Positions 3,075 to 57,973 of a stretch of 64,000 nucleotides of DNA are shown piece after piece. The notes below the pieces were generated by a model. It worked only from the letters and a program-made list of their open reading frames with translations, made no database searches and was not told where the DNA came from. The position numbers and the translations under genes are program-made. Each line of letters opens with the position of its first letter. The stretch's first letter is position 1. Origin of the DNA: Candidatus Saccharimonadales bacterium (GTDB lineage: Bacteria > Patescibacteriota > Saccharimonadia > Saccharimonadales > EFPC-124). The DNA lies in assembly GCA_035457485.1 (NCBI GenBank), contig DATIBO010000006.1:370659-434658 (forward strand). The letters are read 5' to 3'.

Positions 3075-3135
3075 GGTTTTAGCGTTCACTACAATACTGT
3101 GCCACGCAATTTGAACTCTGTATAAAGCTAAAATT

Positions 3136-3164
3136 TTGACACTAAATCAATTTTGTAGTATGGT
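3136..3164 (+). promoter_or_regulatory. sigma70-like promoter of cassette A
   Basis: TTGACA, 17-nt spacer, TATGGT. The 5' UTR carries the hairpin CTGCCA-tatggt-TGGCAG, followed by a GGAGGG SD. Confidence 0.5.
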
Positions 3165-3217
3165 TTTGTCTTAGTCGCTGCCATATGGTTGGCAGTAACT
3201 AGCTTCCGGAGGGAAGA

Positions 3218-3748
3218 ATGACCGCTCAGACGCGAGACTTCGCCGAGATCAGCGACAAGCAGATCTTGGAGGAGGCGATGGAGTCCGGCGAGACGATCTT
3301 CAACGATCTGTTCTGGCGGGACCTTCTCAACAGCGAGACGGTGTGCATCACGGTCGCGCTGGTCGACGCCCTCGGCAACTACACCTGGCTGGGCAGTCAG
3401 GTCTTCGGCGACAAGGTTCAGTGGGACGAGAGCAAGTTCAACAGCTCGCCCGACGACAACTTCTGGGCCTACGCCGGCGGCAAGGCGATCACCTCGGCGG
3501 TGCTTCGCAAGAACACCCGCGAGGCTCGCGAAGCCGGCGACCCGCTCCCCGTGGGTGGCCTCGACTGGAACGGCGGCGTCTTCCGCGCAGTGACGTTCGG
3601 TTCGGGTGACCAGAGCCGGCACGTCGCCGTCGCGGTCGGAACGTGTGGTGTTCAGGGTGACTTCGACGAGGTCATCTCGGCGGCGGTCGTCAACACCTTC
3701 TGCGCCGTGTGGTTGCAGCGCGAAGCTGCCCGCGCCGCGCAGAAGTAA
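3218..3748 (+). CDS. G+C-rich cassette A: hypothetical cytoplasmic protein (176 aa)
   Basis: GC3-rich codons and a GGAGGG SD 4 nt before the ATG. Off-frame ORFs on both strands are typical of high-GC DNA. I recognise no confident family; there is only a faint GlcG/DUF336-like pattern (VAVAVGTCGVQGDFDEVIS). Confidence 0.75.
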   Translation: MTAQTRDFAEISDKQILEEAMESGETIFNDLFWRDLLNSETVCITVALVDALGNYTWLGSQVFGDKVQWDESKFNSSPDDNFWAYAGGKAITSAVLRKNTREAREAGDPLPVGGLDWNGGVFRAVTFGSGDQSRHVAVAVGTCGVQGDFDEVISAAVVNTFCAVWLQREAARAAQK

Positions 3749-3757
3749 CGCCCGCAA

Positions 3758-3803
3758 GAAGCCCGCAAGAGGTAAACTCTTTGCACCGCTTCTTGCGGGC
3801 TTC
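3758..3803 (+). terminator. GC-rich hairpin 3' of cassette A
   Basis: GAAGCCCGCAAGA pairs with TCTTGCGGGCTTC (13 bp) and there is no U-tract. It is homologous to the hairpin after cassette B. Confidence 0.6.
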
Positions 3804-3814
3804 GTACATTGAGC

Positions 3815-4348
3815 TTATTTTAATTTTTTAACTAGTTCATCAAGTTTGATAGTAGCGTCGTCAGATGTATTGATCGTGATCAATTTATCTAAACCGATCG
3901 GGATGTGCTGGGCGGAACGTGAGTAATCGTCGATACGGTCAAAATCTCGGTGGCCAGGATGCCGCTCGCCAGTCTTGACTCGCTCAATAAACCGCTGTCT
4001 CGAAAGCTCGTATGGTACCTTGCAATAAATCTCGATAATTTCTACATCTGGGAAGTCTTCGACAATTTTTTTAATCTGTTTACCGGCAAAGTCTGGGTTA
4101 AAAGCGTTTTCAATAATTAAAGAACGTCCGCTTTTTAAAATCCCTCTGGCAAGTTCGATTAAAAAATCAGCCGACAAAGAACCAAGCAATTTTGACCACT
4201 CCACATCATCAATCCCAAGTCTGTCAAATAAAAACTCTTTTATGTCATCCTTTGAAATTAGCATAATCTTTGTTTGTGCAGACAAGTTTCGCGATAACGT
4301 CGTTTTACCAGATCCTGGGGCACCGTTGACAATAATTAGTTTGTTCAT
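3815..4348 (-). CDS. P-loop NTPase / small-molecule kinase-like (AAA_33-type) protein
   Basis: Walker A motif GAPGSGKTT near the N-terminus. Composition is native and low in GC. The gene is sandwiched between cassettes A and B. Confidence 0.8.
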   Translation of the reverse strand: MNKLIIVNGAPGSGKTTLSRNLSAQTKIMLISKDDIKEFLFDRLGIDDVEWSKLLGSLSADFLIELARGILKSGRSLIIENAFNPDFAGKQIKKIVEDFPDVEIIEIYCKVPYELSRQRFIERVKTGERHPGHRDFDRIDDYSRSAQHIPIGLDKLITINTSDDATIKLDELVKKLK

Positions 4349-4451
4349 GCGGTTATTATATCTAATTTCGATAGACTTTAGACAATTTGCAATTTTCGTT
4401 AAAAAAGTTTATATTATGGTCACTCTTACGCAAGAGACAACGGAGGTGTTT

Positions 4452-5000
4452 GTGACCGCCACGACTCCCACTCAACAAAGGTGGAAGCTTGACAAGGAGC
4501 TGCGCGAGGGCCCGATGTTCGTTCTCGTCGACGGCGAACCGTTCAAGGTTCTGAGTTCGCTCCGGAACAGCAAGCTGTATGTCGGGACCTTCATCGACGA
4601 ATCCTATGCAGGTTTGCTGATGAAGTTCAATCCCGAGACCAAGGCCGTGACTACGATCGATGCTAACGCCGGGCTTCAGGCACTCTACATGAACAGGCTG
4701 GCGATCCCTGACTTCGTATCGCACTTGGTCAGGGCGGTTCAATGTAGTGGCCGAGACTACCGAACAGTCAGCGATGAGATCGCGCGGTCCCTATACGGGG
4801 CTGGCTTAACGGCCGAGATGACGGTTGCTCAGTGGTCGGCGTGTGCGCCGGAGAACGCCATCGATCACATCCGGGCTGACATCGACTGGATCTGGGTCCA
4901 GGCTCGGGCACACAGTCGATGGATGACGCTCCAGATCACACTGGCCGTACTCGCCAAGCTACAGCTCGATAAGCGAAGGCCGGCCGGGGACGGCCAGTAG
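4452..5000 (+). CDS. G+C-rich cassette B: hypothetical protein (~182 aa)
   Basis: GTG start 5 nt after a GGAGG SD. The longer track ORF (4242) runs antisense through the kinase gene and across a TTGCAA-17-TATATT promoter, so I trimmed it. Codons are GC3-rich. Confidence 0.7.
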   Translation: MTATTPTQQRWKLDKELREGPMFVLVDGEPFKVLSSLRNSKLYVGTFIDESYAGLLMKFNPETKAVTTIDANAGLQALYMNRLAIPDFVSHLVRAVQCSGRDYRTVSDEIARSLYGAGLTAEMTVAQWSACAPENAIDHIRADIDWIWVQARAHSRWMTLQITLAVLAKLQLDKRRPAGDGQ

Positions 5001-5011
5001 TACCTGCCCGC

Positions 5012-5061
5012 GAAAAGCCCGCAAGGAGCAATCCTCGCGCCGTGCTTCTCGCGGGCTTTTC
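5012..5061 (+). terminator. GC-rich hairpin 3' of cassette B
   Basis: GAAAAGCCCGC pairs with GCGGGCTTTTC. The region aligns with the cassette A 3' module. Confidence 0.6.
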
Positions 5062-5116
5062 ATATGTTGTCATAAACACCTAGCGGCAAAACGCTAACAC
5101 TTGTTACAATAAAGCA

Positions 5117-7273
5117 GTGAGCGAAGCCGAACTACTCTTAAAAGACCTGAATCCAGAACAACGAAAAGCTGCTGAGACAACCGAGGGGCCAGTACTTATT
5201 TTAGCCGGCGCAGGATCTGGCAAAACTAAAACCTTAACACACAGAATCGCTTATTTAATTGCCAGCGGTAAGGCTAAGCCAAGCCAGATTTTAGCCGTAA
5301 CTTTTACCAACAAAGCCGCTAAAGAAATGCGCGAACGATTGGCGCACTTACTTGGCGCCAACGGAAATGATCGTGCGTTCATGCCATTTATGGGGACGTT
5401 TCACAGTATTTGTGTACGACTTTTACGTTTTGACGGCGAACATATTCAGATTCCAAAAAATTACGTAATTTTTGATGAGGGTGACCGTCAGAGCGCAGTA
5501 AAGCAAGCACTTAAAAAGCTTGGGGTAAGCGAAAAACAATACAGCTCAAATTCGGTCGCCGGTTTAATCAGTAGTGCCAAGAACGAACTTTTAAATCCGG
5601 CCGATTACGCAGCCCAAGCCCGTTTACCTCTACAAAAGGTTGCCGCTGACGCTTACGCGATTTATGAGCGAGTGAAAAAAGAAGCCTCTGCACTGGACTT
5701 TGATGATCTAATAGGTGAAACTGTAAAACTTTTAAAAACAGTGCCAGAGGTAAAAGATAAGTGGCGAAAACAATTCAAGTATGTTTTGATCGACGAGTAT
5801 CAAGATACAAACGCAGCGCAGTACAACTTGGTAAAAATGTTAGTAAACGATCAACAAAACCTCTGTGTAGTGGGCGATGACTGGCAAAGTATTTATAGCT
5901 GGCGCGGCGCTGATTTTAAAAATATTTTAAATTTTGAACATGACTACCCTAAGAGTTTAGTCGTAAAACTCGAAGAAAACTATCGCAGCACCAAAAGTAT
6001 TTTGGACGCGGCGCATAACGTAATTACAAAAAATACTCAACGCTCAAATAAGGCGTTATGGACAAAGGCAGGCGAGGGCAGCCCTGTTAGTATTCAGTAT
6101 GTAAGCAACGAGCATTATGAAGGCGAGGTTGTTGTCAGTAAGATTAAAAGTGCTGTTGCTATGCGTGCCAGGCGCTTTAAAGATTTTGCAGTTTTATACC
6201 GAACCAATGCGCAATCACGCAGCATAGAAGAAAGTTTTATACGTTACGGAATCCCATATAGGATTGTGGGTGGTGTGCGATTCTATGACCGCAAAGAAAT
6301 AAAAGACATAATCGCGTTTATGCGATTAATTTACCAGCCAGCTGACCGCGCTAGTTTTTTGAGAATTGTAAACGTGCCTTCGCGCGGATTAGGCAATATT
6401 TCGGTTCAACGATTTTTAGATTGGAAATCTGCCCGACTTGTTGACGACAGAACCAACATAATCAGTGCGCTTGAAGCCTGCGAAACGGCGCTTGGGATAA
6501 CTGCTAAAGCTAAAAAATCGTTTGCTGATTTGGGCGAAATGCTGGCCCGATTAAAAGAAGCATCCGAAACTATGAGCTTGCCTGATTTTATTGAAAAGAT
6601 TATTCAACGTGTCGACTATATGAACTACCTCGACGACGGCACGCCTCAGGCGGAAGATCGCCAAGAAAACGTTAAAGAGTTAATCTCGGTAGCTCGCGAG
6701 TATGCAGATTTGGGATTGGCTGGGTTTTTAGAAGAAGTTGCCTTAATTAGTGACCTTGATGTGATTCAGGCCGACCAGGATGCGGTTTTGCTCATGACTA
6801 TGCATGCTGCAAAAGGATTGGAATTTCCGTGCGTGTTTATGGTGGGCATGGAAGAAAGCATTTTCCCAAGCGCTCGGTCGCTTTATGACCAGGATGACCT
6901 GGAGGAAGAGCGCAGGCTTTGCTATGTAGGAATGACTCGGGCGCGAGAGGAACTTGTTTTGACCTGCGCAAGTAGCCGCATGATCTATGGATCGACTCAG
7001 CATAATCCACCGTCACGCTTTTTGGCCGACATTGACGGCAAGGCTGAAACGCATCAAGCAACAGCCTTCGGGTTTAATGGTCCGACCGATTATGGTAATG
7101 AGCCTCGGTATGTGCCTGACGATCTAGATTTGGCGGTTGGTGATAAAGTTAAGCACCGCGTTTTTGGTCAGGGGATAATAACCGAGATTGACGGTTCTAA
7201 TGTGGCGGTTAGCTTTGCCGGTCGCGGTATGAAACGTTTAAATGTTGAGTTCGCGCCACTAGAGAAACTTTGA
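5117..7273 (+). CDS. pcrA: ATP-dependent DNA helicase PcrA/UvrD (SF1)
   Basis: Contains AGAGSGKT, TFTNKAA, DEYQDTN, TMHAAKGLEF and VGMTRAREEL. Confidence 0.95.
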   Translation: MSEAELLLKDLNPEQRKAAETTEGPVLILAGAGSGKTKTLTHRIAYLIASGKAKPSQILAVTFTNKAAKEMRERLAHLLGANGNDRAFMPFMGTFHSICVRLLRFDGEHIQIPKNYVIFDEGDRQSAVKQALKKLGVSEKQYSSNSVAGLISSAKNELLNPADYAAQARLPLQKVAADAYAIYERVKKEASALDFDDLIGETVKLLKTVPEVKDKWRKQFKYVLIDEYQDTNAAQYNLVKMLVNDQQNLCVVGDDWQSIYSWRGADFKNILNFEHDYPKSLVVKLEENYRSTKSILDAAHNVITKNTQRSNKALWTKAGEGSPVSIQYVSNEHYEGEVVVSKIKSAVAMRARRFKDFAVLYRTNAQSRSIEESFIRYGIPYRIVGGVRFYDRKEIKDIIAFMRLIYQPADRASFLRIVNVPSRGLGNISVQRFLDWKSARLVDDRTNIISALEACETALGITAKAKKSFADLGEMLARLKEASETMSLPDFIEKIIQRVDYMNYLDDGTPQAEDRQENVKELISVAREYADLGLAGFLEEVALISDLDVIQADQDAVLLMTMHAAKGLEFPCVFMVGMEESIFPSARSLYDQDDLEEERRLCYVGMTRAREELVLTCASSRMIYGSTQHNPPSRFLADIDGKAETHQATAFGFNGPTDYGNEPRYVPDDLDLAVGDKVKHRVFGQGIITEIDGSNVAVSFAGRGMKRLNVEFAPLEKL

Positions 7274-7280: not shown

Positions 7281-7314
7281 GGTGCTCTCTGAGCACCGGC
7301 GCTCCCGACGGGAG
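7281..7314 (-). terminator. tandem hairpins 3' of cassette C, abutting the pcrA stop
   Basis: CTCCC-gtc-GGGAG is followed by GGTGCTC-aga-GAGCACC and then AAAATTA on the minus strand. The same hairpins could also terminate pcrA. Confidence 0.55.
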
Positions 7315-7333
7315 GCTAGTGCTCAGAGTGTGC

Positions 7334-7888
7334 TCAGCTGGAGGCCTTGGTTTTGCGCTTGTGGCTGAAGTAGCCGAAGATCCCTGCGATGGCCAGCCCG
7401 ATCGAGATGATCCAGCAGGCGCTCAGCGCCAGCTTCAGTCGGGTATCGTAGACGTTGTAGTAGATCGTCTGGATGAGGACGCCGATGGCGAGTGTGACGC
7501 AGGCCATCCAGAACTTGGTGGGCCATGTGACGCGCTTGTCGTCGATTGCGGGCCGTCCACTGTTGAACAGCATCATCCCGAACGCCACCATGAGCCATGC
7601 CGCCATCCAGCCGTTCAGACTGTTGGCTTTGGGCAGCATCCTGTCGGTCGCTGCCAGCTGCTGCTCGACCTCGATGAAGTCGATGGCCGCGGAGGCCGTA
7701 CCGCAGATAGGAATAGCGAGCATGAGCGTTACGATGATGTTCGTTGCGGTCGGCGAGACCGGGAGCCAGCTCGCCAGTCTCCAGATGCCGACGGCGACGA
7801 GAATCGCCGCCATCCACTTTCCGGTTGGCGGGTCGTACAAGGCATACGTCACCGGGTCGGTCCCGATACTCGCAATTGCGTTGAACAC
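7334..7888 (-). CDS. G+C-rich cassette C: multi-pass membrane protein (184 aa)
   Basis: GTG start within the GGAGGTAGCTGTG context. It has 4-5 hydrophobic helices and GC3-rich codons. Confidence 0.75.
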   Translation of the reverse strand: MFNAIASIGTDPVTYALYDPPTGKWMAAILVAVGIWRLASWLPVSPTATNIIVTLMLAIPICGTASAAIDFIEVEQQLAATDRMLPKANSLNGWMAAWLMVAFGMMLFNSGRPAIDDKRVTWPTKFWMACVTLAIGVLIQTIYYNVYDTRLKLALSACWIISIGLAIAGIFGYFSHKRKTKASS

Positions 7889-7972
7889 AGCTACCTCCAG
7901 TAGCTAGTCGTTTGACTGGTTGAATTTATACACTATTGTAAGAAAAAAGCAAGATTCAACAGGGGTAATGTA

Positions 7973-8001: not shown

Positions 8002-8063
8002 CTCTTTTAGACTTATTTGCAAGCATCTGCTTAGCAAAAAGTTGACGAGGAGAGGAATTTGAC

Positions 8064-8399
8064 ATGAGCTGCATCGCCAACCCCATGTGGGGCGGAGAAG
8101 TCGTGCTCGGCATGCCGAATGGAGCCCTGTGGGCTTTCGCGGTACTGCTGCCGGTCATCGCGGCCGCGCTCGGGCTCGCCTGCCTGATCTTGCACGAGAA
8201 CGGCGACAACGCCGCTATCGTCGGCGTGATCAGCAGCGTCTTCGCGCCCGTCGCGGCCTACTGCACGTTCATGCTCGACACCGAGCTGATCTCGCGCATC
8301 GGCAGCGACCCCACGGCCACCGGGATCGGCATCATCGCCCAGATCGTAGCCATGGGCTTCGGTCTAGTGATGGGCCTGATCGCCACATTCGACAACTGA
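8064..8399 (+). CDS. G+C-rich cassette D: small 3-TM membrane protein (111 aa)
   Basis: The ATG follows a GAGGAGAGG SD. The protein is very Ala/Gly/Ile-rich and hydrophobic, with GC3-rich codons. Confidence 0.75.
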   Translation: MSCIANPMWGGEVVLGMPNGALWAFAVLLPVIAAALGLACLILHENGDNAAIVGVISSVFAPVAAYCTFMLDTELISRIGSDPTATGIGIIAQIVAMGFGLVMGLIATFDN

Positions 8400-8407
8400 C
8401 GGCGCAC

Positions 8408-8444
8408 GGCGCCCTGCTCACCCTACTTGGGGAAGCAGGGCGCC
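8408..8444 (+). terminator. GC-rich hairpin 3' of cassette D
   Basis: GGCGCCCTGC pairs with GCAGGGCGCC. There is no U-tract. Confidence 0.6.
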
Positions 8445-8464
8445 AAAGCCTCAGTCCTCTCCTT

Positions 8465-8522
8465 TAGCTGTCGATATTTTTACTAGTATCCTGATGAGTC
8501 CATATTTAGGACGAAACAGCTA
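8465..8522 (+). ncRNA. type III hammerhead ribozyme motif (HHR-1)
   Basis: The sequence reads UAGCUG-UC | GAUA-loop10-UAUC-CUGAUGA-GUCC-loop7-GGAC-GAAA-CAGCUA. All core nucleotides are present. Helix III is 6 bp plus A15.1:U16.1, helix II is 4 bp and helix I is 4 bp. The cleavage triplet is GUC, with predicted cleavage after C8472. Confidence 0.8.
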
Positions 8523-8527
8523 ACTAC

Positions 8528-8556: not shown

Positions 8557-8621
8557 TACACAGTTGTTCAGCAAACCAGCTGATACGACAAAACGTACTG
8601 CATTGCCTGAGGAGGCTTGCA

Positions 8622-9245
8622 ATGTCCCTGTTCCGACGCGGCCAGCACTGCTGCTGCCAGCCAGCTTTCGCCACCATCATCGGCTTCGGGAGAATCCCGA
8701 TGACGAACGGTGGCCACAGCCACGACTGCACCTGCACGCACGGTCGCTGCATCGGTCCGGTCCGGATCGTCCACACCGCCGCCAACTGCACCTGCATCGA
8801 CGGCGAGTGCGACAAGACGGACTACGACCGCATCCAGCAGATGATCGACGCCGCCACGGCGCCGCTCACCATCCAGATCACCACGCTCACCAGTCGCCTC
8901 GACGAGGCCGGCCGGCGGATCGAGGACCTGGAGGCGCGGCCCATCGCCGGCATCACCGAGGTCGTGGGCGAGCGTCGCTCGTTCGTTACCCGGTGGACCC
9001 TGGTCGGAGCCATCATCGGCTTCGCTCTGGCGGTCATCGGGGCGCTCAGCGTCCCCGAGGGCATCTACCACCTGCTCGGCAACAAGACCTGGTTCTACAC
9101 CCAGAGCTTCCTGTTCTGGATGGAGATCATCATCGGTACGACGTTCATCGTCGCCGGACTCGGGTTCTTCTTCGGAATGGCCCGCAGTGCCGACGCCGTT
9201 CCGACGTACCGTGAGGTCACCCGCACGGACGGTGGTTCGCTGTGA
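8622..9245 (+). CDS. G+C-rich cassette E1: Cys/His-rich, coiled-coil, C-terminally membrane-anchored protein (207 aa)
   Basis: The N-terminus has CCCQ..HSHDCTCTHGRC..NCTCIDGEC. A heptad-like segment follows, then 2-3 C-terminal TM helices. Confidence 0.75.
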   Translation: MSLFRRGQHCCCQPAFATIIGFGRIPMTNGGHSHDCTCTHGRCIGPVRIVHTAANCTCIDGECDKTDYDRIQQMIDAATAPLTIQITTLTSRLDEAGRRIEDLEARPIAGITEVVGERRSFVTRWTLVGAIIGFALAVIGALSVPEGIYHLLGNKTWFYTQSFLFWMEIIIGTTFIVAGLGFFFGMARSADAVPTYREVTRTDGGSL

Positions 9246-9979
9246 ACCGTCGCCGTGTAGCGCTCGTTGGGTTGCTGGCGATTCCGCTGGCGTGCCTGGC
9301 GTTCGTGCTTTCGAACTCGGTGGTGATGGTCACCGGACCGGCTTCGGTTCCGGTGGCGATCGCGCCGAGTCCCTCTGTCGTCCCGTCCCCGGCCGTAGTG
9401 CCGCCGGACGACTACTGCCTGGTTAAGGCTCCGCCCGAGTATCTGGGCGAGTACACACCAGACAACGACTTCGGCTACCCTGCGGTTACCGATTGGGAGC
9501 GCAAGCACCCCAAGAAGTTCCTGCAGAACCCCGACAGTCTGCCCGACACGCTCACCGACCTGAAGATCCGCTGGTGCGGAGTCGATGGCGAGGGCGTGAG
9601 AGGCGGGGATCCGCTGCTTCAGAACGCACACTTCAGTGTGCCGGACGACAGCGACCCCAACCGCCCCTTCAACGAGGCCAGCTGGCGTGCCACCACGGAC
9701 GCCAACGTGAACCGCGTGAAGTGGGACCAGGCCGAGCTCAAGCTCGCGCCCGCGGGAGACTACTATGTCATGTACATGGTGGAATCCCGCAAGACCGGCA
9801 AGCTGGAAGTGCGAATCAGCCTCCAGTGGAAGCCGGACACCCTGGTGCTTATGCTGCCGATCGCGAGAGCGGACGGCACAGGCACCGAAACGCTGATGTT
9901 GCGACTGGAGTGTGGGTTCCAACCCATGTTCGAGAAGCGCAGCAGCGTCCCCCGGTGGCTGCAGAAGTTCCTGAACTGA
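9242..9979 (+). CDS. G+C-rich cassette E2: secreted protein with an N-terminal signal/TM segment (245 aa)
   Basis: GTG start overlaps the E1 stop (GTGA), suggesting translational coupling. The N-terminus is MNRRRVALVGLLAIPLACLAFVL, followed by a Pro-rich linker. Confidence 0.75.
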   Translation: MNRRRVALVGLLAIPLACLAFVLSNSVVMVTGPASVPVAIAPSPSVVPSPAVVPPDDYCLVKAPPEYLGEYTPDNDFGYPAVTDWERKHPKKFLQNPDSLPDTLTDLKIRWCGVDGEGVRGGDPLLQNAHFSVPDDSDPNRPFNEASWRATTDANVNRVKWDQAELKLAPAGDYYVMYMVESRKTGKLEVRISLQWKPDTLVLMLPIARADGTGTETLMLRLECGFQPMFEKRSSVPRWLQKFLN

Positions 9980-9995
9980 CGCCGCCACCAAGCGC

Positions 9996-10029
9996 GGGCC
10001 GCACCTGGACAAGTTCCCAGGTGCGGCCC
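9996..10029 (+). terminator. GC-rich hairpin 3' of cassette E
   Basis: GGGCCGCACCTGG pairs with CCAGGTGCGGCCC (13 bp perfect). Confidence 0.6.
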
Positions 10030-10094
10030 CGCCGCAACACCTTTGCCTCAGTAGGGCATTTTTTTATATCAAAAAATTGTGTCATAATTGAAGT

Positions 10095-10604
10095 ATGTTT
10101 AAAAGCAAAGACTCCAAAAAGAAAGTCGACAAAGTAAAAACCAGTAAATTCGAAGCTGTTGGCCGCATCGCTCACAAGGCGGCATCCCCATTCATGAAGT
10201 TCTATTTGCGCGATACACATGTTCGTGTGCGCGTTGTAATTATCAACGATCACAAAGAGGTTTTGTTGGTTCGTAGCTGGTTTAGTCATCAAAATTGGAG
10301 CTTACCAGGTGGCGGAATTAAGATTACAGAATCACCAGTAGAAGCCGGCGTGCGCGAGGTCTACGAAGAAACTGGTCTGCGGATAGCAGTGGATCATTTG
10401 CAAGATTTGGGAACGTTTAAAAATCCAAATCCGCAAGCTGGTTATACCGTCGCATGTTTTAAAGTTGACATTCCAAAGCGGCCGCCAAAAATCGCGCACC
10501 ATCGCCGCCTAGAGATGTTGGATGTGGCATGGTTTGATCTTGATACATTGCCAAAGAACCGCGCACCATCTGTAGACTTAGCTCTTGATTTGGCTAGTAA
10601 ATAG
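10095..10604 (+). CDS. Nudix hydrolase
   Basis: Nudix box GGGIKITESPVEAGVREVYEETGL. Confidence 0.85.
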   Translation: MFKSKDSKKKVDKVKTSKFEAVGRIAHKAASPFMKFYLRDTHVRVRVVIINDHKEVLLVRSWFSHQNWSLPGGGIKITESPVEAGVREVYEETGLRIAVDHLQDLGTFKNPNPQAGYTVACFKVDIPKRPPKIAHHRRLEMLDVAWFDLDTLPKNRAPSVDLALDLASK

Positions 10605-13842: not shown

Positions 13843-14106
13843 TTAGCTGCTTACATCTTCTCCCTGTTCATCCTGCCTGGCATCATTGCCAGAGATATCG
13901 GTCTCACCCTCGTCATCGGCAACTCCGGCCATCAGGGCTCGAATATCACCAACTCGGAAACGGTGGTGTCCACCCGGAGTTCTTTTTGAGCTAAGTCTTC
14001 CTGCCTTTACCCATCTGGGCACGGTTTTCGGATCAACCCGGAATAATGCTGCAACCTCCCCTGAGGTGAGTAGCTGGTCGTCTGGATCGATCAGTTCGCG
14101 TGGCAC
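13843..14106 (-). CDS. G+C-rich cassette F: BldC-like MerR/excisionase-family HTH DNA-binding protein (87 aa)
   Basis: LLTSGEVAALFRVDPKTVPRWVKAGRLSSKRTPGGHHRFRVGDIRALMAG closely follows the actinobacterial BldC/Xis-type wHTH pattern as I recall it. It has an acidic C-terminal tail and a GTG start after an AAGGAG SD. Confidence 0.85.
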   Translation of the reverse strand: MPRELIDPDDQLLTSGEVAALFRVDPKTVPRWVKAGRLSSKRTPGGHHRFRVGDIRALMAGVADDEGETDISGNDARQDEQGEDVSS

Positions 14107-19066: not shown

Positions 19067-20206
19067 ATGAACAAGCAAGTTTATTTAGATTACGCAGCGG
19101 CGACCCCGCTTGACGGACGAGTTTTTAAGGCCATGGAGCCCTATTTTACAGATTTATTTTATAATCCATCAAGCTCGTATATAGCCGCAAAACAGGTTAA
19201 GTCAGATCTGGAAACTGCTCGCGCTAGAGTTGCGCACTGGCTTGGCGCAAAAAATGCCGAAGTGATTTTTACTGCGGGCGCAACTGAATCTATAAATTTG
19301 GCTATAAATGGTGTAATGCGTCAATTTGCAGACGCACAGCTTATTGCAAGCTCAATCGAGCATGAGGCAGTTTTGGCAACCGCTCGGCAGTACGACTATA
19401 TTTTAACGCCCGTCAAGCCAGACGGCGTGATCGATCTTGACGTTTTAAAGCAAAACATTACAGATAAAACTGTTTTAATCAGCGTTGGCTATGCAAACAA
19501 TGAACTGGGCGTAATTCAACCGTTGGGCGAAGTTGCGCAGATTATTAAGGAGATTCGCCGCTTACGGCAACTTAAGAACAACAAATTACCGCTTTATTTA
19601 CACACCGATGCCAGCCAGGCTGCTTGCTATTTGGACTTACATGCAAGTCGTTTGGGCGCTGATCTAATCACTCTTAACGGAGGTAAAATGTATGGCCCAA
19701 AGCAAACTGGCGTGCTTTTTGTAAGAGCTGGTGTAACTTTACAACCACAAGTTTACGGTGGCGGTCAGGAGATGGGTGTGCGGTCTGGCACAGAGAATGT
19801 TACCGGCGCAATCGGTTTGGCGGCGGCTTTGGATTTCGCTCAATCTGAACGAAAAGAGGCTATCGCTAAAGCCGGTGCCCTGCGCGATGAACTGCAGCGC
19901 CGAATAGTCGAGCTGCGCCCAGATGCAATTATTAACGGAAATCAAAAAAAGCGCTTGCCAAATATTTTGAACGTAAGCTTGCCTGGCGCTGATGGCGAGC
20001 GACTCTTAATGGAACTTGATGAGCTTGGGGTGATGATTAGTACCGGATCTGCCTGTGCGGCAAATAAGCAAACCGCCTCACACGTTTTGCAAGCGCTGGG
20101 GTGTGACGAGCAAACCGTGCAAGGAAGTCTGCGTTTTTCGGTTGGGCGGCGAACTTCTAAAGCAGATATAAATCGTGCGATTAAAGCGCTAGCGTCTGTA
20201 TTGTAA
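19067..20206 (+). CDS. cysteine desulfurase (class V aminotransferase, NifS/IscS-like)
   Basis: Contains HTDASQA, the PLP-lysine context LNGGKMYGPKQTG, and SGTENV. Confidence 0.9.
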   Translation: MNKQVYLDYAAATPLDGRVFKAMEPYFTDLFYNPSSSYIAAKQVKSDLETARARVAHWLGAKNAEVIFTAGATESINLAINGVMRQFADAQLIASSIEHEAVLATARQYDYILTPVKPDGVIDLDVLKQNITDKTVLISVGYANNELGVIQPLGEVAQIIKEIRRLRQLKNNKLPLYLHTDASQAACYLDLHASRLGADLITLNGGKMYGPKQTGVLFVRAGVTLQPQVYGGGQEMGVRSGTENVTGAIGLAAALDFAQSERKEAIAKAGALRDELQRRIVELRPDAIINGNQKKRLPNILNVSLPGADGERLLMELDELGVMISTGSACAANKQTASHVLQALGCDEQTVQGSLRFSVGRRTSKADINRAIKALASVL

Positions 20207-20229
20207 AAAACTTATTTTAATTGTATAAT
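20201..20229 (+). promoter_or_regulatory. sigma70-like promoter of cassette G
   Basis: TTGTAA (overlapping the desulfurase stop), 17-nt spacer, TATAAT. The ~95-nt leader contains an 8-bp stem, GTTTGAGA...TCTCAAAC (20244-20287). Confidence 0.5.
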
Positions 20230-20322
20230 AACCAAGCTAATTTGTTTGAGATGGGCTGTAAGACGTGGGTTTACACCTCGTCTCAAACAGGTTGAGGTGA
20301 GAGAGCTGAGAGGCTTCGTGCA

Positions 20323-20775
20323 ATGGAAGGTAGAATCCCCGACGGCCCCGAGGCCGTACTCGAGGGTGTGATCGCGGGTCGTAGAGCTGCAGGTCGCAAG
20401 TCCAAGATGACCGGCACGGGATGTCTCATCACTGTCGTCATCGTGGGCTTTCTGGTGGCCTGCTGCTGTGGCGCACCGAACTTCCCACTGTTCTTCAGTG
20501 GGACGGCCGTCGTCACGGTCTGCGACAAGGACCCAAAGCAGGACCAGTACCGGGTCAGTGTCAGTGACGGGGTCACCCGCGAGGTCTACGTGGTAGAGGA
20601 CATGCACCTCCCGATCGTGGCCTGGCGCACTGACGCCGCCGACCTATATTACCGCCTCGACAAGGGCAAGGTGTACGAGATCACGTACCGCGGTATCCGC
20701 TGGACGCCGGGATCGCGGTTCCGCAACATCGAGACCGCAACCCACCTGCCCAACGCAGTCCCCAAGGGCTGCTGA
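20323..20775 (+). CDS. G+C-rich cassette G: putative lipoprotein or membrane-anchored protein (150 aa, or 122 aa from the internal ATG)
   Basis: The hydrophobic segment CLITVVIVGFLVAC ends in a lipobox-like LVAC. Codons are GC3-rich. The start is uncertain (ATG 20323 or ATG 20407). Confidence 0.7.
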   Translation: MEGRIPDGPEAVLEGVIAGRRAAGRKSKMTGTGCLITVVIVGFLVACCCGAPNFPLFFSGTAVVTVCDKDPKQDQYRVSVSDGVTREVYVVEDMHLPIVAWRTDAADLYYRLDKGKVYEITYRGIRWTPGSRFRNIETATHLPNAVPKGC

Positions 20776-20786
20776 ACCCAAGAAGC

Positions 20787-20823
20787 GCGGCTCGGCCTGG
20801 ATGTTCATTCGGGCCGAGCCCGC
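20787..20823 (+). terminator. GC-rich hairpin 3' of cassette G
   Basis: GCGGCTCGGCC pairs with GGCCGAGCC(C)GC. There is no U-tract. Confidence 0.6.
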
Positions 20824-20833
20824 CCTTGGACGT

Positions 20834-20881
20834 GCTTACATGAATGTAGTTCATGCTGATGAGTCCAAAAGGACGAAAAGC
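20834..20881 (+). ncRNA. type III hammerhead ribozyme motif (HHR-2)
   Basis: The sequence reads GCU-UA | CAUGAA-loop5-UUCAUG-CUGAUGA-GUCC-AAAA-GGAC-GAAA-AGC. The core is complete. Helix I is 6 bp, helix II is 4 bp, and helix III is only 3 bp plus A15.1:U16.1. Predicted cleavage is after A20838. Confidence 0.6.
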
Positions 20882-20906
20882 TAAAAAGTATGAGAAAATA
20901 GAAGTA

Positions 20907-21506
20907 ATGAAATTAATTTTTACGATTGCAATCATTGCATTGGGTTTGTGGGCGGCGGTTACCGGTGTGAATAATCTTTTGACTGTAGATGATCTTAAGG
21001 AGTGTAGCGGCCCGAGTTCAACTAATACTACGTGTGCTCCCGCCGATGCGATCGTAGCGATCAGCGGTGGCGATACGCCGGCCCGCGTCGCCGAGGCCAT
21101 TAAACTCTACAAAGCTGGTTGGGCTAATGAATTAGTTTTTTCCGGCGCAGCTCTAGATGCCCAGAGCCCATCAAACGCCGAAGCCATGAAAGAGCAGGCT
21201 GTGACAGCTGGTGTTCCTGCGAGTGCAATTCTGTTAGAAGAAAACGCATTTGATACAACAGAGAATGCACTGCATACAAGCGTAATTTTAAGCGGCGCAG
21301 ACCGTGTTATAGTTGTGACTTCACCTTACCACCAGCGGCGGGCGGGACTTGAATTTAAACGCTTTTTAGGGCAAAATGTTCAAGTTGTTAACCATCCTAC
21401 TCCATATGACCGACTATGGCCGGATTATTGGTGGACGACTATGGCCGGTTGGTGGCTGGCAATGGCTGAAAGCGCAAAAACTTTAATTGTAATGATAAAA
21501 GCATGA
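20907..21506 (+). CDS. DUF218 (YdcF/ElyC-like) domain protein
   Basis: I moved the start to ATG 20907 (MKLIFTIAIIALG) because the track start at 20853 lies inside HHR-2. Contains the VVTSPYHQRRA motif. Confidence 0.8.
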   Translation: MKLIFTIAIIALGLWAAVTGVNNLLTVDDLKECSGPSSTNTTCAPADAIVAISGGDTPARVAEAIKLYKAGWANELVFSGAALDAQSPSNAEAMKEQAVTAGVPASAILLEENAFDTTENALHTSVILSGADRVIVVTSPYHQRRAGLEFKRFLGQNVQVVNHPTPYDRLWPDYWWTTMAGWWLAMAESAKTLIVMIKA

Positions 21507-22543
21507 ATATTTATGTAGGAATGAGCGGTGGCGTTGATAGTTCGCTGGCTGCGGCTTTGTTAAAAGAACAGGGTCACACAGTAACTGGCGTTTACATGAA
21601 AAACTGGACGCAAGATTTGCCCGGAATGAAATGCCCATGGGCCGATGATTTAGCCGACGCAAAACGCGTCGCTGTTCAGCTTGGAATTGATTTTAAAGTT
21701 TTTGATTTTCAAAAAGAATATCGCCAGCAAGTTGTAGATTACATGATTGCCGAATATAAAGCTGGTCGCACACCAAACCCCGACATTATGTGCAACCAAG
21801 AGATTAAGTTTAAGATTTTTTTAAAAACTGCGCTAGAAGATGGTGCCGATGCAATTGCAACCGGGCATTATTCGCGCGTAAAAGACGGCCAACTTTTGGT
21901 GGCGGCTGATAGTGCTAAAGACCAGACTTACTTTTTATACCGTGTTACCAAAGACGCCTTACTTAAAACATTCTTCCCGGTTGGCGAACTCACGAAACCC
22001 GAGGTACGCGCAGAAGCCGAAAAGCGTGGTTTAGTCACCGCTGGTAAAAAAGATAGCCAGGGTATTTGCTTTGTCGGCGAAGTTGGTATTAAAGACTTTT
22101 TAAGCCAGTATGTTACAGCCGAACCCGGCGATGTGATTGATAAAAAAACCGGCAAAATAATTGGCCAACACGAGGGCGCAATTTTTTACACAATCGGTCA
22201 GCGCCACGGGCTGGGGATCGGCGGCGGCTTGCCATATTATGTAACAAGCAAAGATATTGCCAAAAACGAGGTTTATGTTACCACAGATATCAACGACGCT
22301 GCTTTATGGCTAAATAAAGTTGAGCTCAATCAACCGCACTGGATTGATGAAAAGCCAAAAGTTGGTCATGAATATCAGGTTAGAACACGTTATCGTGCGC
22401 CACTCGTAACGGCGAAGATTACGAGAATCAGCGACAAAATCACCGAGCTTGAACTTAAGGATACGGCTAGGGCAATTACCGCTGGTCAATCAGTTGTAGT
22501 CTATAGTGGTGACAAAGTTTTGGGCGGCGGAATCGTAGCCTAA
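21503..22543 (+). CDS. mnmA: tRNA 2-thiouridine(34) synthase
   Basis: PP-loop GMSGGVDSS, plus ATGHY and CFVGE. Confidence 0.95.
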   Translation: MNIYVGMSGGVDSSLAAALLKEQGHTVTGVYMKNWTQDLPGMKCPWADDLADAKRVAVQLGIDFKVFDFQKEYRQQVVDYMIAEYKAGRTPNPDIMCNQEIKFKIFLKTALEDGADAIATGHYSRVKDGQLLVAADSAKDQTYFLYRVTKDALLKTFFPVGELTKPEVRAEAEKRGLVTAGKKDSQGICFVGEVGIKDFLSQYVTAEPGDVIDKKTGKIIGQHEGAIFYTIGQRHGLGIGGGLPYYVTSKDIAKNEVYVTTDINDAALWLNKVELNQPHWIDEKPKVGHEYQVRTRYRAPLVTAKITRISDKITELELKDTARAITAGQSVVVYSGDKVLGGGIVA

Positions 22544-43588: not shown

Positions 43589-43612
43589 GGCGACTGTGGA
43601 GGAACAGTCGCC
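43589..43612 (-). terminator. GC-rich hairpin 3' of cassette J
   Basis: GGCGACTG pairs with CAGTCGCC, about 20 nt from the rplY terminator. Confidence 0.55.
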
Positions 43613-43681
43613 GCACCACCTCTCATCTTGCTTGTCTTGCTCGTTCTTGTTACGGCTCAGGCCGCCGGCGCCGCGTGGGCG

Positions 43682-44119
43682 TCAGGGCTTGATGTTCACG
43701 CAGATCTTGCCGATCTCCGTGCCGTACGACATGAACTGGAAGCACGCGCTGCCGGTCCGGGCCTTGCCGCTGATCGACGACCACCAGTGGCGGTAGCCCC
43801 AGGTGCGACCGTAGCCGCGGTAGGTGATCGCGCTCAGGTAGGCGGTGCCGTTGGTGTCGTAGAACGTCGTGCGCTCGGTCGGGTACTCCACGAAGAGCCC
43901 GTGCCAGCTGCCGCTGGTGCTGTTGACCTGCAGCCCGCTCCCGCTGACCGAGATGCAGTACTGGCCGGTGGGCACGGTGTAGCCCTGGATCCGGATCGAG
44001 CTGGTCAGCGCGCAGCGGGTGACGTCGGCGTGGGCCGGCGCAGCAGCGACGACCGACAGACCGATCATCAGACCGATCGCGGTCATCAGGACGCCGAAGC
44101 GTCGGAACATCGTCCTCAT
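43682..44119 (-). CDS. G+C-rich cassette J: secreted Cys-containing beta-rich protein (~145 aa precursor)
   Basis: Start at the ATG after GAAGGG (MRTMFRRFGVLMTAIGLMIGLSVVAAAPAHA|DV), a classic signal peptide with an AHA cleavage site. The mature part has 4 Cys. Confidence 0.7.
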   Translation of the reverse strand: MRTMFRRFGVLMTAIGLMIGLSVVAAAPAHADVTRCALTSSIRIQGYTVPTGQYCISVSGSGLQVNSTSGSWHGLFVEYPTERTTFYDTNGTAYLSAITYRGYGRTWGYRHWWSSISGKARTGSACFQFMSYGTEIGKICVNIKP

Positions 44120-44189
44120 AGCGGTTAACCCTTCAGACGGCGCAATTTGCGCAGATGGGTGGTGCATGCCGCAGGTAGCGGCTCGAACT

Positions 44190-44219
44190 ATTTTAAACTT
44201 ATTCTGTTAAATAAGTCAA
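44190..44219 (-). promoter_or_regulatory. sigma70-like promoter of cassette J
   Basis: On the minus strand: TTGACT, 17/18-nt spacer, TTAAAAT, starting 3 nt after the ABC exporter stop. The UTR carries the hairpin GCGCAAATTGCGC. Confidence 0.5.
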
Positions 44220-44221
44220 CT

Positions 44222-54771: not shown

Positions 54772-54827
54772 AGCATATCTGTAAACTTGATTTTCATCTG
54801 TTAAAAAGGTATGCTTACTTAGGTTCC

Positions 54828-54913
54828 GCGCGAGTGGTGGAATGGTAGACACGCTACCTTGAGGTGGTAGTGGGAGCAATCCTGTGGAGGTTCAAGTCCT
54901 CTCTCGCGCACCA
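54828..54913 (+). tRNA. tRNA-Leu (anticodon GAG), class II with a long variable arm, CCA encoded
   Basis: The acceptor stem is GCGCGAG/CTCGCGC. The anticodon stem-loop is CTACC-TTGAGGT-GGTAG. The T-arm is GGAGG-TTCAAGT-CCTCT. Confidence 0.9.
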
Positions 54914-54933
54914 AACAGTTCTTGTGCAAACCA

Positions 54934-54961
54934 AGCCGGACGAGCGATTCGTCCGGCTTTT
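54934..54961. terminator. bidirectional hairpin between tRNA-Leu and the GC-rich remnant
   Basis: AGCCGGACGA-gcgat-TCGTCCGGCT followed by TTT. Confidence 0.55.
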
Positions 54962-55054
54962 GCGTTTTCGACAGATACGCGAAGACCTTTTCTTGCTGGC
55001 CAGAACCCGGCACAGCAGGATGCGACACCGTCGCAACCTGCGGCTGACCACCGT

Positions 55055-55306
55055 TCATCTCACCTTCCGCCTCACGCTCGGCTCGCTCCTCGGCGATGTC
55101 GCCGCAGCGGCGACGCTCTTCTCGGCGTCGACCATCTCCCGCGTCAGCCGATCCATCTCGGTCTTGAGCATGTCCAGCGGCACAGCGCCGGCGTAGTGGG
55201 CGTTGAGCAGCTTCTCGCGGTCCTCGCTGATCTCCGGAACGGGACATTCGAGCTCCTGCCGACCGGAACCGGCGGAGTCAGTTCGGCAGTAATCAGCGGC
55301 GATGGC
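55055..55306 (-). pseudogene. GC-rich remnant resembling the C-terminal coiled-coil region of a recombinase-family (large serine recombinase-like) protein
   Basis: My minus-strand translation is ...QELECPVPEISEDREKLLNAHYAGAVPLDMLKTEMDRLTREMVDAEKSVAAAA. There is no start codon in frame. The frame then shifts into ...DIAEERAEREAEGE, which runs into the tRNA. The family assignment is from memory only. Confidence 0.4.
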
Positions 55307-55344
55307 TCAACCATCTCCAATCTCAGCCAAGCGCTAATCGTTGG

Positions 55345-55896
55345 CTAATTTGGCGCCGGTGCCACATTGACACCCAGCGAAACCCACTCTTTTGTGCCGA
55401 TGTCTGGATAAGAAGGATCTTGCGCCATGTCTTGATAATCCAGGACGAGTCGCATCATTAAACCATCACGAAAGGCAAAGACTGGACAGATTCCTAGCCG
55501 TCTGGCCGTACAACGCTCAACGTCTTCCGGAGAGTCGCCTGGAGCCATCCGATAGCCAAGCGTATTAAGGGTGTTCAGCAGAAAGGCTGCTCCATCTTTT
55601 GGCTCAAGTGGCACGTACCACTCCTGGTCATAACTAGGGCAAGTTATATCTATACAAAACAGAGGTTGCCCAACATGTACACCCTGGATTACTTCTCGTC
55701 CGGTGTATATCGCCCCTGCAGGTTTTAGAACTTCATCTTGCAGTCGGCCCATTTCATGTTGCACTTCCGAAAACTTACTTTGAATCACTTGCTCAGCCAT
55801 AACAAGGCCAAACCCGAGAAGCCCCAAAGAGAGGAACAAAACGATCAAGGTTCTACGAATATAACGATTAGCGGTTGTTTGCATATGCATTAACAT
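55345..55896 (-). CDS. hypothetical N-terminally anchored protein (183 aa), intermediate GC
   Basis: TM helix LIVLFLSLGLLGFGLVMA. No family recognised. Confidence 0.55.
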   Translation of the reverse strand: MLMHMQTTANRYIRRTLIVLFLSLGLLGFGLVMAEQVIQSKFSEVQHEMGRLQDEVLKPAGAIYTGREVIQGVHVGQPLFCIDITCPSYDQEWYVPLEPKDGAAFLLNTLNTLGYRMAPGDSPEDVERCTARRLGICPVFAFRDGLMMRLVLDYQDMAQDPSYPDIGTKEWVSLGVNVAPAPN

Positions 55897-55905
55897 AATG
55901 CATAT
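55883..55905. promoter_or_regulatory. perfect 10-bp inverted repeat (operator-like) in a divergent intergenic region
   Basis: ATATGCATTA-aca-TAATGCATAT overlaps the start region of 55345..55896. Confidence 0.35.
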
Positions 55906-55956
55906 CGATCATTAGTTCAAGACTAGGAATTCATCACTCAAGGAAGAGGTACGCAA

Positions 55957-56436
55957 GTGAAGACAACGCATCGATTGGCGCCGCGCCTACGTTATTTGAT
56001 TCTGCTATCAGTTTTAGCAGGATTAGTACTACCAAGCTGGATAGGAGTACCGCCAACCAGTGCCGCCGAGGTTCCCGGCTGCATGAACGGAGGCTTCCTG
56101 GTGGTTTTCCTGCGAGGAACCAACGGAACTCTTAACCGTTCAGGCGAGTACGAACGATTTACCTCAGGATTGACTAGTTCATTCGGCGATACTGCTAGGG
56201 TCGTAGAAATCGGCGACCAAGATGGAAATGGGCAGATCGATGTGCCGGGTTATAGCTACCCGGCGATCGGCCTACTTAGCCTGCCGGATTACGTAACCAG
56301 CGTGGCACTGGGCGTTAAGGAATTGACTGAACTCCTCAACTATCGAGCAGCCACCCTGAAATTATATAAATTCAAGTCTCTGCGTCGACCAGCCCACGCG
56401 GTCTGCGGGGCTGATCGACGACAGCGACGTCAGTAA
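55957..56436 (+). pseudogene. 5' fragment of a secreted cutinase/alpha-beta-hydrolase-like gene, truncated at the cassette L junction
   Basis: There is a signal peptide and then PGCMNGGFLVVFLRGTNGT (cutinase-like C..VVFARGT pattern). The sequence is lost before any GxSxG nucleophile. The last ~25 codons read through AT-rich junction DNA into the cassette L hairpin. Confidence 0.45.
56384..56419 (-). terminator. GC-rich hairpin 3' of cassette L
   Basis: GTCGACCAGCCC pairs with GGGCTGATCGAC (one mismatch). Confidence 0.5.
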
Positions 56437-57086: not shown

Positions 57087-57116
57087 TTTTCCCTCCATGG
57101 GCTTGACGTCGAATAT

Positions 57117-57184
57117 ACCATAACACCTTTTACATCATCGTACAAACCTAAACTATTTACTTTTTTTGTTTTTGGTTTTATAAT
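57117..57184. promoter_or_regulatory. divergent promoter pair for cassettes L and M in a ~130-nt AT-rich spacer
   Basis: Minus strand: TTGTAC-17-TATGGT (57117-57145). Plus strand: TTTACT-17-TATAAT (57156-57184). Confidence 0.5.
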
Positions 57185-57217
57185 ATTTAAATCAGCCACT
57201 TTCGTGAAGGATGTGAC

Positions 57218-57697: not shown

Positions 57698-57702
57698 TCT
57701 AA

Positions 57703-57756
57703 ACTCCGCTGACCCTTCGTGAGCAAGCATTCCGCTGGCCCAAGGGTCGGCGGAGT
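57703..57756 (+). terminator. long GC-rich hairpin 3' of cassette M
   Basis: ACTCCGCTGACCCTT pairs with AAGGGTCGGCGGAGT (one G:U), followed by GTTTTG. Confidence 0.6.
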
Positions 57757-57816
57757 GTTTTGCTATAAGGGGCTTTTTTTATAGCCAATAAAGTGTTATA
57801 CTACATAAGTTCTTAA

Positions 57817-57893
57817 GGGTTGTTAGCTCAGCTGGCTAGAGCATCTCGTTTACACCGAGAGGGTCGGGGGTTCGAATCCCTCACAACCCACCA
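57817..57893 (+). tRNA. tRNA-Val (anticodon TAC), CCA encoded
   Basis: The acceptor stem is GGGTTGT/ACAACCC. The anticodon loop is TTTACAC. The T-loop is TTCGAAT. Confidence 0.9.
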
Positions 57894-57896
57894 TAG

Positions 57897-57928: not shown

Positions 57929-57973
57929 CTATGGTTGCGATTATTGAGTTTTTTTACCAGAGTGATTTGCAAA

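Follow-up and report, generated by a model that had tools for sequence, protein, structure and literature searches.

A type III hammerhead ribozyme as the last element of a GC-rich cassette inserted into a saccharibacterial operon

What does a hammerhead motif do between an inserted gene and a native operon? The question is raised by a 64,000-nt stretch of a Candidatus Saccharimonadales genome (contig DATIBO010000006.1; hereafter the window), in which a short motif, HHR-2, stands between a GC-rich cassette, cassette G, and the gene pair DUF218-mnmA of a tRNA-modification operon. Since the 2011 catalogue of bacterial hammerheads, it has been unclear what most of them do biologically. We find that HHR-2 is, on its sequence, a genuine type III hammerhead with predicted self-cleavage, and we argue that it is the last element of the inserted cassette, where it would probably define the cassette's 3' end and, at this site, uncouple foreign from native messages. 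A first-pass annotation of the same DNA had called a hammerhead here with the same core and helix II as a second motif in the window, HHR-1; core, Rfam alignment and an independent covariance model all confirm the call and place the element in type III.

A complete hammerhead with covarying relatives

Read directly from the letters of the plus strand, HHR-2 is GCUUA/CAUGAAUGUAGUUCAUGCUGAUGAGUCCAAAAGGACGAAAAGC, the slash marking the predicted cleavage site. Its core is complete, with CUGAUGA (C3-A9) at 20856-20862 and GAA (G12-A14) at 20875-20877. Helix III has 4 bp (G20834-C20881, C20835-G20880, U20836-A20879 and U20837-A20878, the last joining positions 16.1 and 15.1). Helix I runs from C20839-G20855 to U20845-G20849 under a GUA loop; the six pairs that had been assigned to it earlier are present, and it reaches 7 bp once the closing U-G is counted. 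Helix II joins 20863-20866 with 20871-20874 (GUCC/GGAC, 4 bp) under an AAAA loop. Residue H17 is A20838, not G, as required, and the predicted scissile bond lies at 20838/20839, in keeping with the earlier prediction of a 5'-OH end at C20839, the residue after the predicted cleavage site. Helices I and II are capped by loops and helix III is open, which is the type III topology. Both pairs that flank the core, G20863-C20874 and C20839-G20855, are Watson-Crick, with no mispair beside it; Perreault et al. (2011) accept hammerheads on the rule that N10.1-N11.1 and N1.1-N2.1 are not mispaired (PMC3088659). The minimum free energy (MFE) fold of the isolated 54-nt RNA 20831-20884 is exactly the three-way junction.

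How much weight can a motif of this size bear? The bare core pattern carries none, with five matches in the window against 3.5 expected, which is not significant. The Rfam model RF00008 (Hammerhead_3, clan CL00010) aligns with HHR-2 end to end at 31.5 bits (E=0.0086 over the window, 4e-5 locally). A structure-aware model was built from relatives. The pattern CTGATGAGTCC-N4-8-GGACGAAA was scanned in one genome per GTDB species and gave at least 136 matches in at least 120 loci; among the matches listed, 115 had a paired helix I, U16.1, a paired helix III and the type III arrangement and were kept as the family. The covariance model R1 comes from an alignment of 90 family hammerheads of other genomes, with no window sequence included. 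It scores HHR-2 at 60.8 bits (rough E ~1e-16), and with filters off its sole other match in the window is HHR-1 (8457-8524, 44.7 bits).

The family alignment supports the helices themselves. Across the 90 relatives, standard pairs make up 93% of the paired positions, against 34-42% with slid partners, both-sided changes occur in six of seven helix I pairs and five of six helix III pairs, and the covariation score is 0.72, compared with 0.08-0.11 when partners are slid; helix II, being fixed by the search pattern, is uninformative. Because a model without window sequences gives HHR-2 so high a score and the family's helices I and III covary, we regard HHR-2 as real.

The family form is a 7-bp helix I with loop GUGU (U-GUGU-A), a 4-bp helix II (GUCC/GGAC) and a helix III of 4-6 bp. 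Its loops I and II are conserved, loop II as AAAA (69/115) or GAAA; HHR-2 has AAAA in loop II and GUA in loop I. In the 20 loci tested, every family member falls short of the Rfam gathering score, so that the family is invisible to routine annotation. Saccharibacteria or other Patescibacteria are named in 57 of the 80 loci with listed titles, an enrichment that is indicative only, since the scan order is unknown.

Insertion into the iscS-DUF218-mnmA operon

The neighbours of HHR-2 are iscS, the cassette G ORF, DUF218, mnmA and GSDH (Table 1). A related-locus search with DUF218 in genome contigs returned no relatives, and the junction was recovered through DUF218 homologues and their contigs. 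Four relative lineages have empty iscS/DUF218 sites, and for this reason the block from promoter to ribozyme is read as an insertion. The native sequence resumes at AGTATGAGAAAATA (20887 onward), which is common to the empty site in L122. On this comparison, promoter, leader hairpin, GC-rich ORF, U-tract-less hairpin and ribozyme form one insertion of ~678 bp, with the ribozyme last, and the ancestral state is thus one tight iscS-DUF218-mnmA operon, in which DUF218-mnmA lacks a separate promoter. The cassette G junctions are not an assembly chimera, for an independent Logan assembly of the organism (L121) matches the window with 100% identity over 801 bases.

Table 1. Features of the iscS/DUF218 locus, the sister ribozyme and the empty sites of relatives (window coordinates)
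Feature	Coordinates	Strand	Evidence or detail
HHR-1, sister ribozyme	8465-8522	+	Rfam 47.3 bits; R1 44.7 bits
iscS, native cysteine desulfurase (IscS/NifS-like), upstream flank	19067-20206	+	Pfam Aminotran_5 E=8.6e-62
Cassette G promoter-like site TTGTAA-17-TATAAT, overlapping the iscS stop codon	20201-20229	+	consensus scan, 10/12 matches
Long hairpin in the cassette G 5' untranslated region (UTR), GUUUGAGAUGG...CCUCGUCUCAAAC	20243-20292	+	sequence reading
Cassette G ORF, 150 aa, GC 0.63, third-position GC (GC3) 0.79	20323-20775	+	composition; native genes GC3 ~0.40
GC-rich hairpin after the cassette G ORF, core 20785-20823, without U-tract	20778-20829	+	fold
HHR-2, predicted type III hammerhead ribozyme	20834-20881	+	sequence, Rfam, model R1, fold, family covariation
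DUF218 leader, 25 nt	20882-20906	+	comparison with L122
DUF218 (YdcF family), native	20907-21506	+	Pfam DUF218 E=1.6e-26; homologues 198-202 aa
mnmA (tRNA 2-thiouridine synthase), native, 4-nt overlap with DUF218	21503-22543	+	Pfam tRNA_Me_trans E=1.7e-76
Empty site, L122			DUF218 83% identity; iscS-DUF218 gap 34 nt
Empty site, L124 (L125 and L126 have the same DUF218 protein)			DUF218 70% identity; gap 10 nt
Empty site, L127			DUF218 70% identity; iscS-DUF218 overlap 4 nt
Empty site, L129			DUF218 65% identity; iscS-DUF218 gap 10 nt

A direct repeat of 6 nt, TAAAAA, flanks the insertion at 20204-20209 and 20882-20887. It could be a target duplication, microhomology or a chance event in AT-rich DNA. 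The repeat would fix the right junction, to within 6 nt, where the ribozyme ends; this is weak evidence, as the hexamer is common in AT-rich DNA.

How, then, are the native genes expressed? The putative cassette promoter is the sole plus-strand promoter-like site in 19900-21300 and is missing from the empty site in L122. The distances given in the first-pass annotation hold, with the core of the hairpin ending 11 nt before HHR-2 and the DUF218 ATG following 25 nt after it, and so does its statement that this gap leaves no room for a separate promoter. It had also dismissed an ORF start at 20853 as an artefact of translating the ribozyme, correctly in view of the length of the homologues and of the L121 gene call, which starts at the equivalent of 20907. 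Since no promoter fits into the 25-nt gap and DUF218-mnmA normally lies in the iscS operon, we infer that these two genes must be transcribed through cassette G. The stem of the intervening hairpin is followed by CCUUGGACGU, which holds no U-tract, so that it does not qualify as an intrinsic terminator, and a scan of 19900-21300 returned no terminator-like site and no T-tract terminator; the same scan over 20 kb of native sequence gave no enrichment over shuffles, which makes it unusable as a host baseline.

In two further relatives the iscS/DUF218 site holds other, unrelated GC-rich cassettes without a ribozyme (L123, 3500-3990; L128, 2300-3000). Filled independently in both, the junction looks like an insertion hot spot. 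The L128 cassette adjoins an IS1595-family transposase.

The cassette G protein combines an N-terminal transmembrane helix with a conserved domain of unknown function, and HMMER finds 16 weak relatives of it. The resulting family (P0001, P0122-P0137, alignment A3) is small and unannotated; after the transmembrane helix comes a conserved domain of ~100 aa, TVCDKE..YRVYT..WRTDSADVY..G.R..FSWF.NI, with K69, Y76, D107, G124, R126, S131 and N135 invariant. The protein has no Pfam match, and a word-index search returned essentially only itself, as did a second such search with a cassette protein; a cluster look-up gave no names. A phage tblastn with three cassette proteins found no matches, metagenome scans with the exact 40-mer of HHR-2 and with the cassette G family alignment came back empty, and exact-sequence look-ups of mnmA and P0001 retrieved no record. 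Against Rfam, the leader hairpin gave generic miRNA-like hairpin matches below threshold and no RAGATH-10. An actinobacterial origin of cassette G, for which only its composition speaks, is unproven.

Position of the ribozyme family relative to its neighbours

To which side does the ribozyme belong? Across the family the upstream side is polar. In 81 of 100 cases the closest ORF on that side runs in the direction of the ribozyme; if only ORFs of 100 aa or more lying no further than 200 nt away are counted, 65 of 75 are co-directional and 10 opposite. From stop codon to ribozyme the median distance is 81 nt. These upstream ORFs exceed the locus average by 6.3 points of GC (downstream genes, ~0 to +1) and are diverse in cargo, 83 proteins falling into 77 clusters. 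Structure is stronger in the 80 nt upstream of the ribozyme than in the 80 nt that follow it (mean z -3.5 vs -1.6, p=1e-7), and a T-tract follows six of 58 clear upstream hairpins.

The downstream side is variable. Of the downstream genes within 200 nt, 34 are co-directional and 23 convergent; 20 and 18, respectively, lie within 65 nt. Some of the convergent genes encode 400-900 aa and end 0-20 nt past the ribozyme. In L055, read base by base, the unit of promoter, GC-rich ORF, hairpin and ribozyme occurs twice in tandem before a native gene, and the first ribozyme is followed directly by the promoter of the next cassette. HHR-1 is arranged alike: GC-rich cassette D (ORF 8064-8399 with its hairpin) precedes it, and the cassette E promoter follows. 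Because the upstream side is polar and the downstream side variable, the ribozyme goes with the upstream cassette as a module of its 3' end, and is not a specific insulator for co-directional genes.

Could the ribozyme nonetheless have been selected for the gene downstream, giving it a standard 5' end whatever is inserted upstream? RiboJ, a synthetic insulator engineered from a satellite-RNA ribozyme and placed after a promoter, does this. HHR-1 and HHR-2 both precede co-directional genes, DUF218 has no promoter of its own, and in 20 of the 115 family members, as in HHR-2, the start codon of a co-directional gene follows within 65 nt, too close for a promoter to fit. The downstream neighbour is convergent, however, in 23 of 57 cases within 200 nt and in 18 of 38 within 65 nt, and where the ribozyme precedes the next cassette's promoter, as HHR-1 and the first L055 ribozyme do, the downstream primary transcript would not contain it. 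The first-pass annotation had placed both window ribozymes exactly where a cassette precedes a co-directional gene; that rule fails on the downstream counts and on co-directional junctions that have no ribozyme, both in the window (from near 5060 to 5117, and from near 10040 to 10095) and in L123 and L128, where a cassette fills the iscS/DUF218 site. Its idea of read-through followed by processing gains support here from the operon in relatives and the missing promoter, whereas its extension to an insulator for co-directional genes does not, and we consider selection for insulation unlikely.

Proposed role and alternatives

How might HHR-2 act at this locus? Polymerase from the cassette promoter or from the upstream iscS operon would pass the U-tract-less hairpin into DUF218-mnmA. 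Once the 3' strand of helix III (20878-20881) had been made, the ribozyme would fold and cut between A20838 and C20839, as its complete core and the family covariation suggest. The cassette mRNA would then end ~15 nt past the stable hairpin with a 2',3'-cyclic phosphate, and the DUF218-mnmA mRNA would start with a 5'-OH, the 43-nt ribozyme body and the native 25-nt leader; a helix III of 4 bp would let the two cleavage products part quickly. Definition of the cassette's 3' end would be the primary role, and the uncoupling of foreign from native messages a consequence at the iscS/DUF218 site.

Several points weigh against this proposal. Read-through of the hairpin is assumed, and the ribozyme is dispensable in general, given the cassettes that do without one, both elsewhere in the window and at the iscS/DUF218 site of L123 and L128. 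The Rfam score of HHR-2 lies below the gathering score of 48.5 bits, which is a curation threshold and not a structural feature. The sequences used for covariation had first been selected for paired helices I and III (114 of 136 kept, 90 aligned), which somewhat inflates the percentage paired. In a 161-nt context the MFE fold swaps helix III for a pairing of 20831-20837 with 20886-20892. HHR-2 is also an uncommon member of its family, with A at H17 (5/115), a helix III of only 4 bp, and a loop I of 3 nt where 4 is usual; UUA is among the slower cleavage triplets in the kinetics of NUH triplets. These variants recur elsewhere: the 4-bp helix III is found in 22 of the 115 family members, so that the earlier concern that it may be too short is not strong, and the 3-nt GUA loop is found in L111 and L067.

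The same features could mark a relic, a ribozyme that arrived with the cassette or a donor lineage and is now inactive or inconsequential, with DUF218-mnmA tolerating a long upstream RNA. The rare H17, the minimal helix III, the short loop I and the ambiguous fold in long context would all fit, as would the tolerance of relatives for ribozyme-less cassettes at this very site. Against this, no core position or core-adjacent pair is damaged, HHR-2 outscores HHR-1 on the family model, and each of its variant features occurs in other family members; we hold a relic to be quite unlikely.

A role in mobility, with the ribozyme serving as a DNA or single-strand recombination boundary in the manner of attC or as the processing site of a circularisable RNA intermediate in the manner of retrozymes, seems to us improbable. 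In the second case, a unit between two ribozymes would be released as an RNA with 5'-OH and cyclic-phosphate ends open to circularisation. A mobility role would account for a ribozyme that ends an insertion, with the right junction at its 3' end within the TAAAAA repeat, for cargo ORFs that are nearly all unrelated, as in integron cassettes, for identical or near-identical ribozymes flanking single cassettes in L055, L113, L057, L003 and L067, and for the separate insertions that L123 and L128 have at the iscS/DUF218 site. The invariant catalytic core and the RNA covariation of helices I and III, however, fit catalysis and not recombinase binding, and among the neighbour genes examined there is no integrase, reverse transcriptase or transposase adjoining cassette G and no prophage beside it. 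HHR-1 and HHR-2 lie 12.3 kb apart, differ in helices I and III and in their loops, and are the only two hammerheads in the 64 kb; cleavage would strip a linear RNA of most of the ribozyme, and the repeat is a common hexamer. Perreault et al. found no spliced or circular products from tandem bacterial hammerheads (PMC3088659).

That HHR-2 resembles the hammerhead consensus by chance has a probability near zero: a core pattern no commoner in the window than in shuffled sequence and a sub-threshold Rfam score would allow it, but a second copy in an equivalent context 12 kb away and more than 100 relatives of shared architecture stand against it, and the family covariation and the score on the independent, structure-aware R1 effectively refute it.

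Relation to known systems

HHR-2 shares with the type III hammerheads of RF00008 the identical core CUGAUGA...GAAA, A15.1-U16.1, an H17 that is not G and the open helix III; the patescibacterial sub-family differs in being very compact, uniform and under the gathering score. Clustered hammerheads that flank variable genes in prophages and bacteria were described by Perreault et al. (2011) in Clostridium scindens, Azorhizobium caulinodans and Agrobacterium tumefaciens (ardA), three tandem bacterial sets were found to cleave in vitro and in E. coli, and the role proposed for them was the processing of long transcripts into gene-length mRNAs (PMC3088659). Here too the ribozymes bracket single genes or short blocks of changing identity and occur in tandem sets (L055, L067, L113), and the same processing of long transcripts is proposed. 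The differences lie in the absence of an adjoining prophage or integrase, in a cargo of GC-elevated orphan ORFs that each bring a host-type promoter and a hairpin lacking a U-tract, in the Saccharibacterium host and in a ribozyme whose polarity follows the upstream ORF; hammerheads with this core pattern in viral contigs mostly have a closed helix III and are not type III.

Like RiboJ, HHR-2 is a hammerhead between an upstream unit and a downstream coding region and would leave a fixed 5'-OH followed by a structured element; unlike it, the natural element follows a coding region and a hairpin, and often precedes a convergent gene or another promoter. Integron attC cassettes offer a second parallel, with diverse orphan cargo, one conserved structured 3' element and tandem arrays. 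By contrast, attC is a DNA site read by IntI and no integrase lies near 20 kb here, the conserved element is a catalytic RNA motif with RNA-type covariation, and each cassette has its own promoter. Retrozymes resemble the tandem loci in that direct-orientation type III hammerheads bound units of 0.5-1 kb (713 nt in L055, 990 nt in L113), but the window ribozymes are far apart and non-identical, and the units are protein-coding and carry promoters.

What is already known, then, is the hammerhead class and transcript processing around variable genes. What appears new is a compact sub-family below the Rfam threshold, concentrated in Patescibacteria and placed after GC-elevated orphan ORFs with host-type promoters; literature searches for hammerheads together with Saccharibacteria, Patescibacteria or the candidate phyla radiation returned no relevant paper, and on that ground the sub-family and its placement are apparently undescribed. 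Threshold-based Rfam annotation misses this sub-family, members of which turned up at well over 100 loci, mostly in Patescibacteria. HHR-2 offers a falsifiable role for such an element, since it predicts RNA ends at 20838/20839 and a dependence of DUF218-mnmA on read-through, and the link of the family to GC-elevated orphan genes bears on how tiny episymbionts take up and express foreign DNA.

Further observations on cassettes and on the window

In part of the family the two ends of a cassette are complementary. At 24 of 100 family loci (among them L009, L055, L058, L075, L102 and L110), a stretch of 10 nt or longer within the final 32 nt ahead of the cleavage site has its exact reverse complement 430-1550 nt upstream, in the cassette 5' UTR; the downstream control shows this in 2 of 78. 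With a minimum of 12 nt, the counts fall to 12 and 0. The paired sequences differ between cassettes, which suggests that 5'-3' RNA pairing may be selected. The tail of HHR-1 (8447-8470) pairs at -23.1 kcal/mol (p ~0.02) with the part of cassette D that holds its ribosome-binding site and start (8043-8075), and pairing of the HHR-2 tail with its own 5' UTR is not significant (p ~0.2). The motif tgtctgcttgtcat, which stands upstream of many ribozymes, was considered as the start of a divergent gene and rejected, the reverse-strand frames being just 5-50 codons long; it is complementary to the cassette's own 5' UTR.

A second motif, in the forms GTTCTTTGACAAG, TTCTTTAACAA and GTTCTTTGAAA, occurs after cassette promoters and before the long hairpin (5' UTRs of L009, L020, L058, L070, L075 and L100), and also within ~5 nt 3' of the ribozyme at the Parcubacteria-type loci L003, L007, L010, L050, L096 and L105. 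It may resemble the rRNA/lambda boxA antitermination element, a likeness that we keep as a lead for other loci only. The motif is not enriched in the window, no paper with it was found, and the loci examined contain no 16S gene for comparison. In L058 the leader of a cassette that ends in a hammerhead at 1844 matches Rfam RAGATH-10 (1223-1309; 48.2 bits, threshold 41.2), long leader hairpins like it occur in L013, L075, L076, L104 and L120, and RAGATH-10 has no match in the window.

Do these parts belong to one system? That the ribozyme is the conserved 3' module of modular, horizontally shuffled expression cassettes widespread in Patescibacteria is a doubtful extension of our proposal. The unit would begin, speculatively, with a host-type promoter, a long-hairpin leader and a GC-rich orphan ORF, and end with a hairpin lacking a U-tract, a tail able to pair with the cassette's own 5' UTR or ribosome-binding site, and the hammerhead; in some lineages, just as tentatively, a boxA-like motif would precede the leader. 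If this were true, self-cleavage and 5'-3' pairing would yield end-protected single-gene mRNAs and make insertion into essential operons tolerable, and the cassettes would be a natural counterpart of synthetic insulator parts, with the ribozyme possibly also marking the boundary of cassette exchange.

In viral contigs of IMG/VR (L130-L249) the core pattern is abundant. Some 95 of at least 126 matches are not type III, many of them with a hairpin-closed helix III; the ~31 type III viral matches, among the matches listed, often share an upstream TTCAAAGACAC and a downstream CGGAAAC.

The window holds many other GC-rich islands (GC 0.58-0.64, genome 0.46), at 3128-3825, 4400-5060, 7290-7900 (minus strand), 8064-8450, 8560-10040, 43600-44220 (minus strand) and 54800-58500. 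In the four whose flanks were read (3128-3825, 4400-5060, 8064-8450 and 8560-10040), each ORF region comes with a short, AT-rich promoter of sigma-70-like form and with a GC hairpin that mostly lacks a U-tract. The island proteins examined are small membrane or secreted orphans. Among the GC-rich islands of the window, two alone end in a hammerhead.

On the minus strand, an ORF of 87 aa (13843-14106, GC 0.54) matches the structures 6AMK and 6AMA, 'Putative DNA-binding protein' (E=1e-19), which we take to be Streptomyces BldC, an actinobacterial regulator. If so, this would be one hint that the GC-rich inserts of the genome come from Actinobacteria, the usual hosts of Saccharibacteria. Also on the minus strand, a 534-aa ORF (61659-63263) with an N-terminus that by eye is serine-recombinase-like ends at, and overlaps, a tRNA gene (61606-61678, plus strand), an overlap that could mark the boundary of an integrative element far from both ribozymes.

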